Shown one piece after another: positions 15,574-20,148 of a stretch of 56,957 nucleotides of DNA. Within the stretch, counting starts at the first letter, position 1; every line of letters starts with the position of its first letter. The notes under the pieces were generated by a model, which made no database searches, was not told the DNA's origin, and saw only the letters and a list, made by a program, of their open reading frames with translations. The stretch is taken from positions 1 to 56,957 of the forward strand of contig JBDRFG010000013.1 of the NCBI GenBank assembly GCA_043819135.1, in the 5' to 3' direction. Made by a program: the position numbers and the translations under genes. This DNA comes from Candidatus Eiseniibacteriota bacterium (GTDB lineage: Bacteria > Joyebacterota > Joyebacteria > Joyebacterales > Joyebacteraceae).

Positions 15574-15665
15574 AGCGTCGGTTGGCGATGGTGGAGGATC
15601 GTTGCGGCCCGCTTGTATGTGCACGGTGCTGCGTGTGGAACGCGCCAGAGAGAAGGGAGGGTTGC

Positions 15666-16250
15666 ATGAGGGCAGTTGCTATGGCGTTGCTTGTGCTCCT
15701 GTTCGCAGGCGCTGGGGCGGCGTACGCCAACCCCATAGTCGGGGAATGGATGTACGTTGACTTCGATCCGCCGGACTTCGTTCACTCGGTATACCCGGAT
15801 CCTTACAGCACGGTCGACGCCTACATAATGCTCGACCTCACCATGTCGGGCGAGCCGGGCTTCACGGCGGTCTCGTTCCGGCTCTCAATTTCGCCCGACA
15901 CGGCGATCGACCCGAGCTTCACGAGCCTGCTCACCGGCGGTCCGGTCGTCGGTACGTGGGACACGGGCCTCACCCTTGGGGCGACCGAGTGCGTCACGAC
16001 GTTTCCGGCGCCCGTCGGCCGCTTCACGTTCACCTACGGTGGAATACCAGGTGATGTCGCGATCGTCGATCATCCCGACTTCCCGCGCTGGGTGGTCGAC
16101 TGCAATGTCGAGGAGGGCCAGGTATTCTACTACTGTGTCTACTCGTTCGGCGGCGTCGGCAAAGAGACCGACGTCGGACCGTCGGGGGACTGCGGTGGCA
16201 ACCCTGTCGAGAACGAGACTTGGGGCTCCATTAAGTCGATGTACAAGTAG
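15666..16250 (+). CDS. Secreted hypothetical protein ending in PVENETWGSIKSMYK
   Basis: GGGAGG RBS; signal peptide MRAVAMALLVLLFAGAGAAYA; beta-rich body; short Trp-Gly-containing tail. Confidence 0.85.
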   Translation: MRAVAMALLVLLFAGAGAAYANPIVGEWMYVDFDPPDFVHSVYPDPYSTVDAYIMLDLTMSGEPGFTAVSFRLSISPDTAIDPSFTSLLTGGPVVGTWDTGLTLGATECVTTFPAPVGRFTFTYGGIPGDVAIVDHPDFPRWVVDCNVEEGQVFYYCVYSFGGVGKETDVGPSGDCGGNPVENETWGSIKSMYK

Positions 16251-16273
16251 AACGCCATACGAGGGTAAGTAGA

Positions 16274-16311
16274 GAGCGGCCACCTGACCCCTTGGGATCG
16301 GGTGGCCGCTC
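16274..16311. terminator. Strong GC hairpin, probably a bidirectional terminator
   Basis: GAGCGGCCACC (16274-16284) pairs with GGTGGCCGCTC (16301-16311). Confidence 0.6.
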
Positions 16312-16323
16312 GAACGCGACGCA

Positions 16324-16543
16324 GGACATCACCGTTCGCCCGGCATAGCAAGGAACTGCCTCCCGCAGTCCCCAAACGCGGCGAGGGGGGAGTCCGGTCC
16401 CGGCAGCGTGCCGGTTCCCTCTTCCCCTCTCATCCTGAATGGAAGCCCTCTTCAGGGCTGCCCCCCGGCCCCTTGCGGGACCGCTCGAGGACGTCGGCCG
16501 CAGACGCCAACTCAACCCGCGACTCAGACGAATAGCGGATGCT
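16324..16543 (-). ncRNA. Candidate ~220-nt structured ncRNA with raiA-motif-like architecture
   Basis: Lies between convergent genes; upstream TTGACA and downstream hairpin; 5' and 3' ends pair (UUCGUCUG/CGGGCGAA, with G-U pairs only on the minus strand); at least five internal hairpins including GCAA and GAAG loops. Confidence 0.6.
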
Positions 16544-16547
16544 CACA

Positions 16548-16577
16548 CAACTACAGCAAGATAGCCGTACTTGTCAA
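16548..16577 (-). promoter_or_regulatory. Putative promoter for the ncRNA
   Basis: Perfect TTGACA at 16577-16572; the -10 is imperfect (TGTAGT or TAGTTG). Confidence 0.45.
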
Positions 16578-16662: not shown

Positions 16663-17397
16663 CTACCTGGAGGAGACGATCACGTAGTCCGTGTAGAAGA
16701 TGTGCATCACGCCGTTACGGCTGATGAGCGCCAGCTTGATGTCGACCTCCCCGGTGTGCCGGCGGAGAAGCCTGAAGCCCTCGGGTGTGGGCTCGAAGGC
16801 CTTGTCCAGCTTGATCCTCTTGACCGGGAACGGAGGGTCCGCGACCTCGCCGATGATCCGTACCAGGCCCAGGCTTCCGACCTCGACCCACACTTTGCCG
16901 TCGAAGTGCTCGGCGTCGCGCTCGGTGGCCGTGACCGCCAAAAGGTAGCACCGGCGCCCCTCCATGTCCTCGACGCCGGTGAGAAAGACATCGTACTCGC
17001 CCGAAAGGAGCTCGGGACCTACGAGACTGCTCAGCGAGTACTTCCCCACGGGGTGGCCCAGGTTCGAGTAAGACTCCTCGCGATGCATGCCTTCATCGCG
17101 GTGATAGGAGAGCACGGCCAGTGCCCCCTTCTCCCCACCGTCCTTCGTGGGCTCAACCATCTCCTGCTCCACGCGCAGCGTCTCTATCGCCGCCATCGCG
17201 CGGTTGATGTTGGCGTTGTACCCCTCGAGCACCTCCTCGAGACTCAGCATTCTCGCGGAGTCCGCATCGGCGGTCTCCGCCGATCGCGCGATGGAGGGCA
17301 ACAAGATGGCACACAGAAGAGCCACCGCCGCCCAGCGCACTACGCGGGCGGAATGAGCGGCCCGGCAGCAACCAGTTGCGTGATGAGGATCTCCCAT
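16663..17397 (-). CDS. Exported hypothetical protein, possibly LolA-like beta fold
   Basis: Hydrophobic signal-like segment; beta-rich body (GRRCYLLAV, FDGKVWVE); start uncertain. Confidence 0.7.
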   Translation of the reverse strand: MGDPHHATGCCRAAHSARVVRWAAVALLCAILLPSIARSAETADADSARMLSLEEVLEGYNANINRAMAAIETLRVEQEMVEPTKDGGEKGALAVLSYHRDEGMHREESYSNLGHPVGKYSLSSLVGPELLSGEYDVFLTGVEDMEGRRCYLLAVTATERDAEHFDGKVWVEVGSLGLVRIIGEVADPPFPVKRIKLDKAFEPTPEGFRLLRRHTGEVDIKLALISRNGVMHIFYTDYVIVSSR

Positions 17398-17527: not shown

Positions 17528-19084
17528 ATGACTGAGCGAAGACGTCGCCAGGCGACCATCGCGCCATGGGGGATTCTCCTGTGCGCCACCGCCCTTCACG
17601 CGAGCACGGTGGTCGACCTCGCGTCCGAGGCTGCGCCATCCATCCGCGGCACGGCCACGGAGGATCAGTTCGGTCATTGCATGGGCTCCGGCGACCTTGA
17701 CGGCGACGGCAGTGCCGAGCTCGTCGTTGGCGCGCCGGGGCTCGCGGACAGCGCGGGCGGCCCGCACGCTGGTGCGGTCTTCGTATTCCGTCTCTCCGCT
17801 CTGGACACGCTTTCGGTGAGTGCGCACGCCTCGGACCTCGCTGAACGGACGGTCTTTGGCGGCAGGGACCACGGCAGATTCGGCTCCGCGGTGGCCATCG
17901 CCGACCTGGATGCCGACGGTTTCGACGACCTCGCCGTCGGCGCGCCCGCTGCCGGCGACGAGAACAGCGTCGCACGCGGCGAAGTGTCCGTCTATTTCGG
18001 AAGCCCCTCCGGCTCCTGGAGCCTGGGGCCGAATGCGACGCCGGACGCGACCATGACGGGCGCATCGTCGGGCGCGAGACTGGGTTCCTCCATGCTCGCC
18101 CGCGACATCGACGGAGACGGGGCCGCAGAGCTTCTCATCTCGGCGCCGGCGGGCGGAGGGACGGCGGGCGCGCGGCCCGGCGCTGTCTACGTGGTCGAGG
18201 GCGAGGCGCTCCGCTCCCTGCACGAAGCCGCGACCGTAACCGATGTCGCGGTGGCCACCATCGTCGGTGAGAACGCGGGAGACGCGCTCACGGGACTGGC
18301 CGTGGCCGACACCGACGGCGACGGTGTCCTCGAACTCGTACTGGGCGCCTGTCAAGCAGACGGGCCCGGCGCGGACCTGACGGACGCCGGAAGGCTCTAC
18401 GTCGTCGGAGTGCACGAGGTTCTGGGGCAGCCGTCGTCACTTCCGTTGAAGGGAACGCACTCGCTCACCGGCGACACCGAGCGCGGATTCCTCGGCCGGT
18501 CGATATCGGTCGGCGACATCGACTACGACGGCATCGACGATCTGTTGGTCTCCGCCTACGCGTCGAAAGTGGGCGGGGACAAGCTCGAGGCGACGGGAGA
18601 GGCGTTCGTGCTGTTCGGGAACGCCCCGGACGCGAACGGTGGCGGACGGGCCGGCACGCCCGAGCTCGACGACCCCGCCGTGCCGCGATTCCGTGGCGGC
18701 TCAAGATCGGACCTGTTCGGCCTCCCGGTTCTTCTGGCCGACCTCAACGGCGATGGCGCCCACGACATCATCACCGCGTCGCAGTACGCGGACGGACCCG
18801 ACGATGAGCGGAACGCATGTGGTGAGATCTATGTCTACAGGGGAAGCCTGAGATCAGTGATGGCGGCCAAGGCTGGGAGCGCGGACCTCGCTGACATCAC
18901 GGTCGTCGGGGAGAACTCGGAAGACGCCATCGGCGGATCGCTCCTCGTCATCGAGTTTTCAGAGGGCGAGCCGCCCGTGCTTATCATCGGCGCCCCGAAC
19001 GCGCCTGGCGCCGGGGGGGACGGAGAGACCGTCCAGCGCTGCGGAAAACTGATACTGCTGTCGGCGAAGTCATTGTTGAGGTGA
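17528..19084 (+). CDS. FG-GAP / integrin-alpha-like beta-propeller protein
   Basis: Repeated FG.....gDldGDG..El.vGAP units; signal peptide. Confidence 0.88.
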   Translation: MTERRRRQATIAPWGILLCATALHASTVVDLASEAAPSIRGTATEDQFGHCMGSGDLDGDGSAELVVGAPGLADSAGGPHAGAVFVFRLSALDTLSVSAHASDLAERTVFGGRDHGRFGSAVAIADLDADGFDDLAVGAPAAGDENSVARGEVSVYFGSPSGSWSLGPNATPDATMTGASSGARLGSSMLARDIDGDGAAELLISAPAGGGTAGARPGAVYVVEGEALRSLHEAATVTDVAVATIVGENAGDALTGLAVADTDGDGVLELVLGACQADGPGADLTDAGRLYVVGVHEVLGQPSSLPLKGTHSLTGDTERGFLGRSISVGDIDYDGIDDLLVSAYASKVGGDKLEATGEAFVLFGNAPDANGGGRAGTPELDDPAVPRFRGGSRSDLFGLPVLLADLNGDGAHDIITASQYADGPDDERNACGEIYVYRGSLRSVMAAKAGSADLADITVVGENSEDAIGGSLLVIEFSEGEPPVLIIGAPNAPGAGGDGETVQRCGKLILLSAKSLLR

Positions 19085-19160: not shown

Positions 19161-20108
19161 CTACTTCGACAGGATCTCGACCGTGTCGCCCGAACTCAGA
19201 ACATGATCCAGACCAACCTCCTGCCCGTCGAAGCTCGCCGATGGTCCCCACACCCTGGCCTTTCGCGCACCGCCTGCAAGGTCCTTGTGTATCTGGCCCG
19301 CCAGATCCAGCACGTTTGCGCCCTCCGGAACGGCGTAGGCGAGAGGTTCCTCCTTCGAAACAGGATCGCGCGCGTCGACGACGATCCTGCCGATGAGGCC
19401 GCAGAACGCCTCGGCGATGGCGCGCTCCTCCCCCTCCCGTAACGGGAACCCAAACACGGGCGCCCCCGCACTGAGTGCGCGAAGAGACGCGAGTTCTTCA
19501 GGACCCGCGGCATCGGCTCGGGTTCCGATGAGCACGGCGGCCTTGTCGGCTCCCATCTCAGCGAGCTGACCGCGCAACGTGTCCATGTGGAGTCCGTGGT
19601 CCGCCGACAGGTCGACGACGATACAGAGGAACGTGGCGTTCAGACAGGCCTCCTTGAGCCCGCTCGCGTACTGCACTTCATCGAGCTGGCCCTCCGGGAA
19701 AGGAGGCAGGTCGACGATCTCGAACTCGAAACCGCCGAGGACGAACATCCCGACGTTCGGGGTCAGCGTCGTGTAGGGATAGTCGGCGACCTCCGCGTCC
19801 GCGCCGGTCAGAGCGTTCAGGACCGACGTCTTGCCCACGTTCGGAAGACCGACGAGTGCGATTTCGGCGAGCCCCCGTTTCCTGACGGAGAAAGGGTCAT
19901 CCGGGGTGGAGTGCGATGCGAGCACGCGGGTGATCTTCCTGAGTCCCGCGGCCTTTCGCTCGAGCTTTTTCCGAAGCTCCTGATACGGTCCCCTGTACTC
20001 CGGCCAGTCCGAGAGGTAGTCCTCCAGCAGACGCAACTCCTCCCTCGGCGGCCTCCCCTTGCAATCGCCCTTGATCTTGACCCAGAGATCCTTGTGAGAC
20101 ATCGGCAT
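19161..20108 (-). CDS. OBG/DRG-like GTPase with C-terminal TGS domain
   Basis: G1 GLPNVGKT, G2 DYPYTT, G3 DLPP; TGS IHKDL...ARVWG...GQEVGLDHVL..GD.VEI. Confidence 0.85.
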   Translation of the reverse strand: MPMSHKDLWVKIKGDCKGRPPREELRLLEDYLSDWPEYRGPYQELRKKLERKAAGLRKITRVLASHSTPDDPFSVRKRGLAEIALVGLPNVGKTSVLNALTGADAEVADYPYTTLTPNVGMFVLGGFEFEIVDLPPFPEGQLDEVQYASGLKEACLNATFLCIVVDLSADHGLHMDTLRGQLAEMGADKAAVLIGTRADAAGPEELASLRALSAGAPVFGFPLREGEERAIAEAFCGLIGRIVVDARDPVSKEEPLAYAVPEGANVLDLAGQIHKDLAGGARKARVWGPSASFDGQEVGLDHVLSSGDTVEILSK

Positions 20109-20148
20109 GAGCTTCTCTCCGGAAAACACGCTCCGCGGGTCCCGCCAT

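Follow-up and report, generated by a model that had tools for sequence, protein, structure and literature searches.

On the minus strand of the window, that is, the whole stretch of 56,957 nt that was analysed, we identified what comparison of sequences indicates to be a real RNA gene, representing an apparently undescribed family of stand-alone structured RNAs that is so far confined to one deep uncultured lineage and is distinct from the raiA motif. Our tentative reading, to which we give a probability of about 0.4, is that this is a stand-alone trans-acting RNA, in which an invariant nine-base element would be the pairing seed for a putative partner in trans. Neither Rfam 15 nor the literature searched contained a description of this RNA; the motif supplements of large ncRNA screens lay outside that search and could hold it. 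The gene and its parts are located as follows.

16371-16545, minus strand: conserved part of the ncRNA gene (117 bits with covariance model R1, as a training-set sequence); the 3' end in this genome is uncertain
16572-16577, minus strand: -35 hexamer TTGACA
16547-16555, minus strand: -10-like element TG-TAnnn(G)T, with a spacer of 18 nt to the TA; the consensus -7 T is replaced by G, and a T follows one base on
16517-16538, minus strand: P1, an optional 5' hairpin
16490-16511, minus strand: P2, a weak hairpin with the invariant element, in two registers
16493-16501, minus strand: invariant element GCGGCUGRC, preceded by YY (GCGGCCGAC in this genome)
16467-16482, minus strand: P3, a hairpin often with a GNRA loop
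16441-16465, minus strand: P4, a hairpin of the GGRGYYGY / RCGGCUCC type
16383-16431, minus strand: P5, a purine-rich/pyrimidine-rich stem with a variable apical domain, terminator-like in some genera
16327-16376, minus strand: 3' extension (UGGGG, a hairpin at 16372-16352 and a proposed closing strand), particular to this genome or genus; relatives do not align past UGGG
16274-16311, no strand: 18-bp inverted repeat (38 nt), a likely terminator common to the RNA and the convergent gene

An initial annotation of this DNA had proposed a free-standing structured RNA of about 220 nt at this position, perhaps of a new class and resembling the raiA motif. The sequence words that it listed are present on the minus strand, the flanking genes converge, and a TTGACA is located at 16577-16572. 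That the element is structured was also borne out: region 16270-16545 folds at -155.3 kcal/mol, better than 200 out of 200 shuffled sequences, and is conserved beyond chance. The corresponding z-score of -4.14 owes part of its size to the strong terminator-like hairpin formed by the 18-bp inverted repeat; the conserved 174 nt alone gave z = -1.72, and the values of 27 homologues span -1.39 to -7.3. The size had been overestimated, as the conserved gene measures about 175 nt.

Comparison of genomes demonstrates the gene. By blastn, the element was detected at 79-85% identity in six of the seven other genomes of the genus. We then built covariance model R1 from 27 homologues and screened the sampled phylum, which consists of 31 genomes, all of one family. 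Exactly one strong copy (65-138 bits, for sequences used in training) was present in 27 of the 31 genomes, and the remaining matches scored below 30 bits. The genomes without a full copy are G020 and G030, in which it is truncated to about 80 nt, G013, in which a contig breaks, and the 67% complete G003, which also lacks the upstream gene. Downstream of the upstream gene, the promoter-like element and GCGGCUGRC were found together in 29 of 30 loci, and the remaining locus is cut off at the gene by the end of its contig. Scanning metagenomes for the pattern yielded at least 115 loci; among the matches listed, 11 score 67-109 bits and 104 are chance matches. All 11 true matches among those listed have the promoter and the same upstream gene; four of them repeat training sequences and seven are new (67-104 bits). 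The 34 distinct copies, full or cut by a contig edge, share 39-97% pairwise identity, with a median of 51%. The proposal that the RNA is free-standing and perhaps of a new class therefore held up, given one copy in 27 of 31 genomes, a conserved promoter-like element and a variable downstream gene.

Searches of 130 genomes from other phyla (120, plus 10 of one small phylum), a sample in which the true sister phyla may be missing, did not turn up the RNA. Two weak R1 matches among the 120 genomes (24-29 bits) were at the level of reverse-strand noise and without a promoter, and two weak matches in the 10 genomes of the small phylum, which were picked by an FG-GAP homologue, were without core or promoter; we rejected all of these. 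In a viral collection, 16 matches to the promoter plus core pattern and three to the core plus helix pattern were detected, none of which scores as the RNA, and blastn against phages and plasmids gave nothing useful. A weak blastn match in genome G016 (locus L009) was discarded, as it resembles in part the RNA's 3' end and is no orthologue. This stretch (L009:1500-1600; G016:C100) resembles the 3' end of the RNA of the window's genus (g1) together with the promoter and subtilase gene that follow, lies off G016's own RNA locus, and is perhaps the relic of a moved or transferred block.

The promoter-like element is likewise evident from comparison. The -35 hexamer reads TTGACA in 34 of 36 loci, TTGACG in one and CAGACA in one. 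In the -10-like element G, T and A are invariant (36/36), with G in 30/36 and the last T in 35/36, and the spacer is 18 nt long in 35 of the 36 loci. The usual promoter form in the window's genome is TTGACA-N17-TAnnnT, which is found at 79 of 557 TTGACA sites; the full TTGACA-N18-TAnnnGT variant is present at the RNA locus and at one other site. Judged from the aligned loci, absence of the consensus -7 T is a conserved trait of the RNA's sigma70-like promoter element, and a simple promoter scan fails to pick up this non-consensus form. We infer that TTGACA-N18-TAnnnGT would function as a promoter; judged from it, the RNA would start at about 16543-16540.

The genes around the RNA are the following.

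16663-17397, minus strand: upstream gene, 244 aa, predicted to be exported (signal peptide seen by eye)
15582-16250, plus strand: convergent gene, 222 aa, exported protein with a 'WGxIKxxY' tail at the C-terminus and no Pfam match
17528-19084, plus strand: FG-GAP repeat protein gene, divergent from the 244-aa gene and within the conserved block
19161-20129, minus strand: GTPase gene (MMR_HSR1 and TGS domains), two genes away from the RNA; presumably DRG-like

The 244-aa upstream protein had zero Pfam matches; language-model features suggest that it may be LolA-like/TP_0789/MucB-like (atlas score 0.95, with these families on 11-15% of members). It is present in 30 of the 31 genomes, and the RNA lies immediately 3' of its gene in all 29 genomic and all 11 metagenomic loci. 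Because the protein is predicted to be exported, it is an unlikely partner of the RNA. The other side of the RNA varies: among 29 genomes, the downstream gene has the orientation of the RNA and a consensus promoter of its own in 14, is convergent, of the 15582-16250 type, in 11, and has the orientation of the RNA with no promoter detected in 4. This variation shows that the RNA is independent of the downstream gene and follows a stand-alone pattern rather than being a leader. The convergent genes in L029, L035-L040, L044, L046 and L048 encode exported proteins with a conserved 'S/TWGxIKxLY' tail, which we take to be probably a C-terminal sorting signal. Look-alikes of the 38-nt inverted repeat occur elsewhere in six g1 genomes (see also L010-L016), and the repeat may be a terminator or belong to a small repeat family. 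The window's genome is 92% complete with 64% G+C, and microcompartment genes were seen in it by eye. Together with a phylum made up of one family and about 30 genomes, these traits would fit Ca. Effluviviacota (VGIX01) in the account of PMC11323493.

We then analyzed the fold across the family. In an alignment made on sequence only, 82.5% of the cells pair, against 44-61% in slid controls, and two-sided changes affect 18 of 29 pairs; in the model-fitted alignment of 34 copies, 85.5% of the cells pair and two-sided changes are found in 19 of 29 pairs. These controls ignore kinship, and the helix pairs were chosen on the same (first) alignment. P3 is missing in one of the 34 copies, is paired in 98% of cells and has two-sided changes in four of six pairs, including G-C to C-G; P4 is 83% paired with two-sided changes in six of nine pairs, and P5 is 79-83% paired with two-sided changes in 6-8 of 10 pairs. 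In these alignments, P3, P4 and P5 thus show compensatory changes. P1 folds in 7/7 sequences of g1 and 5/5 of g8, with differing stems, and is absent in g3 and g5. The eight bases past P5 include 5-7 U in 10 of 32 sequences and 1-3 U in g1. Distances between conserved blocks are spread over all three frames (13/10/11 of 34); hence the RNA is non-coding, and the candidate small peptide was ruled out.

Several finer points of the originally proposed fold were not sustained. The closing helix with CGGGCGAACGGUGAUG lies 6.8 kcal/mol above the minimum free energy and its 3' strand is absent in all six aligned relatives of the genus; instead, the 5' end folds as a hairpin of its own in all seven (the window's genome and its genus relatives). 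A closing helix between the 5' end and the P4-P5 linker of the same RNA does better than controls with linkers of other genera in only 24 of 34 copies, and it mostly fails in the window's genus. The GAAG-loop stem occurs in 1 of 34 homologues, and the GCAG partner of the proposed CUGC/GCAG pseudoknot reads GCCG in six relatives. The stem GUUGGC/GCCGAC fared partly better, being one of two registers of P2, neither of which is universal: the register GUYGGC/GCYGRC, with at least five pairs, is possible in 18 of 34, the register with loop (Y)GCGGCU and at least four pairs in 25 of 34, and neither in three.

The strongest conservation is found within P2, in an element that the initial annotation had overlooked. 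Six of the nine columns of GCGGCUGRC are identical in 34 of 34 copies and two more in 33, and the pattern of YY plus core is present in 33 of 34. Beyond the element, only about ten other columns are conserved in at least 32 of 34 copies, giving a total of about 18. GCGGCUGRC stays fixed even though its pairing strands vary in sequence and in register, and a GCGGCU-like copy is also present in the 3' strand of P4. The truncated copies in two g3 genomes, which may be decaying, keep the promoter, an intact P2 and a terminator-like hairpin and have lost P3-P5. From this pattern we read GCGGCUGRC as a putative recognition site for a partner in trans. All substitutions within the element but one are C/U or A/G, which a single unchanging partner could accommodate by G-U wobble; this is weak evidence, because mutations are most often transitions and because R and YY also take part in pairs within P2.

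The raiA motif RNA (RF03072), to which the locus had been likened, resembles the RNA studied here in being single-copy, free-standing and about 200 nt long, with variable peripheral stems and minimal subtypes (PMC10861870, PMC12968392). In these reports, raiA RNAs have 51 highly conserved positions, two pseudoknots (PK1 and PK2) supported by covariation and a P1 that joins the two ends of the RNA and has conserved GU and GGU bulges; they are abundant independent transcripts that act in trans and are usually located between comFC and raiA (74% / 66%) (PMC10861870, PMC12968392). The RNA described here differs in its 9-nt invariant element, its separate 3' hairpin, its other neighbours and the lack of a supported pseudoknot. 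The Rfam scan that the initial annotation had called for, sub-threshold matches included, did not detect raiA in the region at E<=10; the only match was mir-937 (E 8.1). RF03072 had no match at E<=10 in the genome either. Among the 31 genomes of the phylum, none scored over its cut-off of 101 bits, two 14-15-bit matches were on other contigs, and 14 control genomes were without a true raiA, which left this search with no positive control. The 35 homologue loci, compared with all Rfam models, gave chance-level matches only at E<=10, with raiA absent. The raiA core words AGUC[G/C]A[U/A], GAUCCAC/CACGUAAG, GAGCAYGG and GUAAG, drawn from alignment rows in the supplement of PMC10861870 that lack the 3' half, were each found in 0 of 34 copies, and those same rows show no counterpart of GCGGCUGRC. 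A raiA-type P1 with GU and GGU bulges is not formed, since the proposed closing strand is confined to this genome and the 5' end folds back on itself or onto the internal linker; no pseudoknot of the PK1/PK2 type is supported, the sole candidate long-range pairing being without two-sided change; and raiA/comFC neighbours are absent, the neighbours being LolA-like, FG-GAP, GTPase and ABC transporter genes. GGUUG(A/C) in 16 of 34 copies, GAGAG in 25 of 34, the similar size, the free-standing state and a KhpB gene in the genome would fit a divergent raiA motif RNA; set against the absent core words, model match, closing P1 and raiA/comFC neighbours, they leave that reading a probability close to nil. 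At the level of sequence, membership of the raiA family is already refuted, and nothing shows that the RNA works like raiA RNA.

No other known family accounts for the locus. In the whole window, no Rfam family reached gathering level. The 6S model (RF00013) had no match at the locus and none over its cut-off in the 31 genomes, and the locus is not beside zapA; a 6S candidate after zapA (L050:1776-1945; L262-L287) was rejected, as it is not conserved among the 19 genomes aligned. The SRP RNA (C106, 73.7 bits), an RNase P motif (C129) and two tmRNAs are located elsewhere in the genome. CsrB/RsmZ decoys and 6S RNA, the latter binding the sigma70 holoenzyme and templating pRNA, are likewise stand-alone, lineage-wide, single-copy regulatory RNAs; the RNA here lacks both repeated GGA loops and a long rod with a central bubble, its fold being multi-branched, and matches no Rfam family. 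CsrA is encoded in the genome, but GGA is absent from the invariant loop, and a CAGGA word was seen by eye once, in genus g1 only. The ZMP/ZTP riboswitch model (RF01750) had no match at the locus, which is not in a 5' leader. The likeness to the ZMP/ZTP consensus is superficial and consists of words near CUGRC, upstream of a hairpin and GGGAG, whereas our RNA is not located before purine/folate genes, and except in two genera it lacks a conserved 3' pseudoknot loop.

By sequence comparison, the RNA has features of a base-pairing trans sRNA, namely a promoter-like element and a 3' end, lack of coding capacity and a conserved, putatively exposed element. In the mechanism that we propose, a non-coding RNA of about 135-200 nt, encoded by one gene copy and transcribed independently, would act in trans. 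A sigma70-type polymerase would start it at about 16543; P2, P3, P4 and, where present, P1 would meet in a multi-way junction, which pairing of the 5' end with the P4-P5 linker would close in most genera, and P5 would terminate and protect the RNA. The working part would be the 9-11-nt YYGCGGCUGRC in its weak, slippery hairpin, whose G-rich loop would make the first base pairs with a single, constant partner RNA before the hairpin opens up into a duplex of 9-11 bp, the mode being that of an Hfq-independent antisense seed. The sole invariant stretch has the length of a seed and is fixed though its pairing strands drift, which is most likely explained in this way. In addition, Hfq was not found in the 92%-complete genome, in which CsrA and KhpB were, and two g3 genomes keep little besides the P2 element. 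Against a seed, the three conserved helices exceed the scaffold that most pairing sRNAs need. Hfq-independent loop-seed sRNAs, such as the staphylococcal ones with a C-rich loop, share the promoter-like element, a short conserved, exposed element and a 3' terminator-like hairpin, but here the scaffold is more conserved and the seed is G-rich; it therefore cannot pair with a Shine-Dalgarno sequence.

Searches for a partner RNA gave no convincing target. Among the 8 of 29 loci listed, no site complementary to the element recurred at a constant position around the neighbouring genes, and start-region complementarity in the window's genome gave 41 candidates not told from chance. A pairing of 12 contiguous pairs with 16S helix 21 was rejected because it was no better than shuffles in two of three cases (0.12, 0.12, 0.02) and is broken in 4 of 12 16S genes though the element is fixed; pairing with a 105-nt sigma54-type RNA was rejected as the site varies (by eye). 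YYGCGGCUG and CAGCCGCGG, a stretch of the 530 loop of 16S rRNA, are exactly complementary; the latter is present in the three full-length 16S genes listed and served as anchor in 12. The RNA could in that case be a new housekeeping-type class whose element pairs with a universal RNA, a candidate trans-acting guide or chaperone in the assembly or silencing of the small subunit. We consider this highly improbable: the complement was noticed post hoc, 2.6% of shuffled 7-mers match as well, and the U-to-C change of this genome would mismatch the site. As the 530-loop site is invariant, covariation cannot test the pairing.

Alternatively, the element could be the binding site of an RNA-binding protein or of RNA polymerase, presented on a hairpin and titrated as by CsrB/RsmZ or 6S, the RNA being a decoy or scaffold. 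A short hairpin-borne element that is invariant amid free peripheral helices, the second GCGGCU-like copy in the 3' strand of P4, an unrelated conserved RNA in the phylum with a similar word (GGGCUGAUC), and the lack of both a target RNA and an RNA over the 6S cut-off in the 31 genomes are in line with this. We regard it as the close rival of the seed and as nearly as likely. Against it, known decoys have many copies of the site, here there is one exposed copy; CsrA is present, yet the invariant loop is without GGA, and a TROVE/Ro protein was not found in the 92%-complete genome; the fold is a multi-way junction rather than a 6S-like rod; and the register of the stem is unfixed, while hairpin-reading proteins usually require a fixed loop.

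Quite unlikely, in our view, is a compact tertiary RNA (a switch, aptamer or ribozyme-like RNA), whose GCGGCU loop would dock on the 5' strand of P4 (RGYYGY) or on an unseen core. RNAalifold does choose a 6-bp pairing of the loop with P4, with 94% of cells paired. A switch is made less likely by the lack of any two-sided change in this pairing, which moreover excludes P4 with its compensatory changes, and by its cost, when forced, of 1.7-17.5 kcal/mol in 34 of 34 copies, as computed by a program that cannot score pseudoknots. The approximately 18 columns conserved in at least 32 of 34 copies are few for a catalytic or ligand-binding core, and the ZMP/ZTP model is without a match at the locus. 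The RNA could also act in cis, as leader of the downstream gene or as a 3' UTR element of the upstream mRNA: it invariably lies right after the same gene on the same strand, and a simple scan saw no terminator in between. This we consider very unlikely, given downstream genes that are convergent in 11 of 29 genomes or have their own promoter in 14, and a dedicated promoter-like element in 36 of 36 loci, 16-200 nt past the stop codon of the upstream gene.

The locus adds a near-universal RNA gene for one uncultured, family-level phylum, and on present evidence this lineage lies outside the range of the raiA family. The anatomy of the RNA gene is unusually clean: a single site of nine bases is invariant, the optional arms are modular, minimal versions of about 80 nt occur naturally, and the promoter is odd and conserved. 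It therefore lends itself directly to probing, pull-down experiments and searches for a target.

Other RNA genes were encountered during these analyses. The window's genome contains a tRNA-Sec gene (G000:C25 55309-55406) and two tmRNA genes (C26 256-627 and C109 11547-11918), which encode an identical tag peptide and have differing upstream sequences. A second conserved and apparently undescribed RNA is a rod of 100-106 nt with a near-invariant centre (L017:1501-1606, corresponding to G000:C106:73423-73528, plus strand; L245-L261). It has a weak match to the 6S model (16-33 bits, with about 88 model positions missing) in 18 of the 31 genomes. A TGGCAC-N5-(T/C)TGC element, which we take to resemble a sigma54 promoter, is located upstream of it, and a hairpin is present downstream in several genomes. 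The sequence at its centre, GGUCGUGGGCUGAUCC, is similar to the form GGUYGCGGCUGACC of the RNA at 16371-16545.
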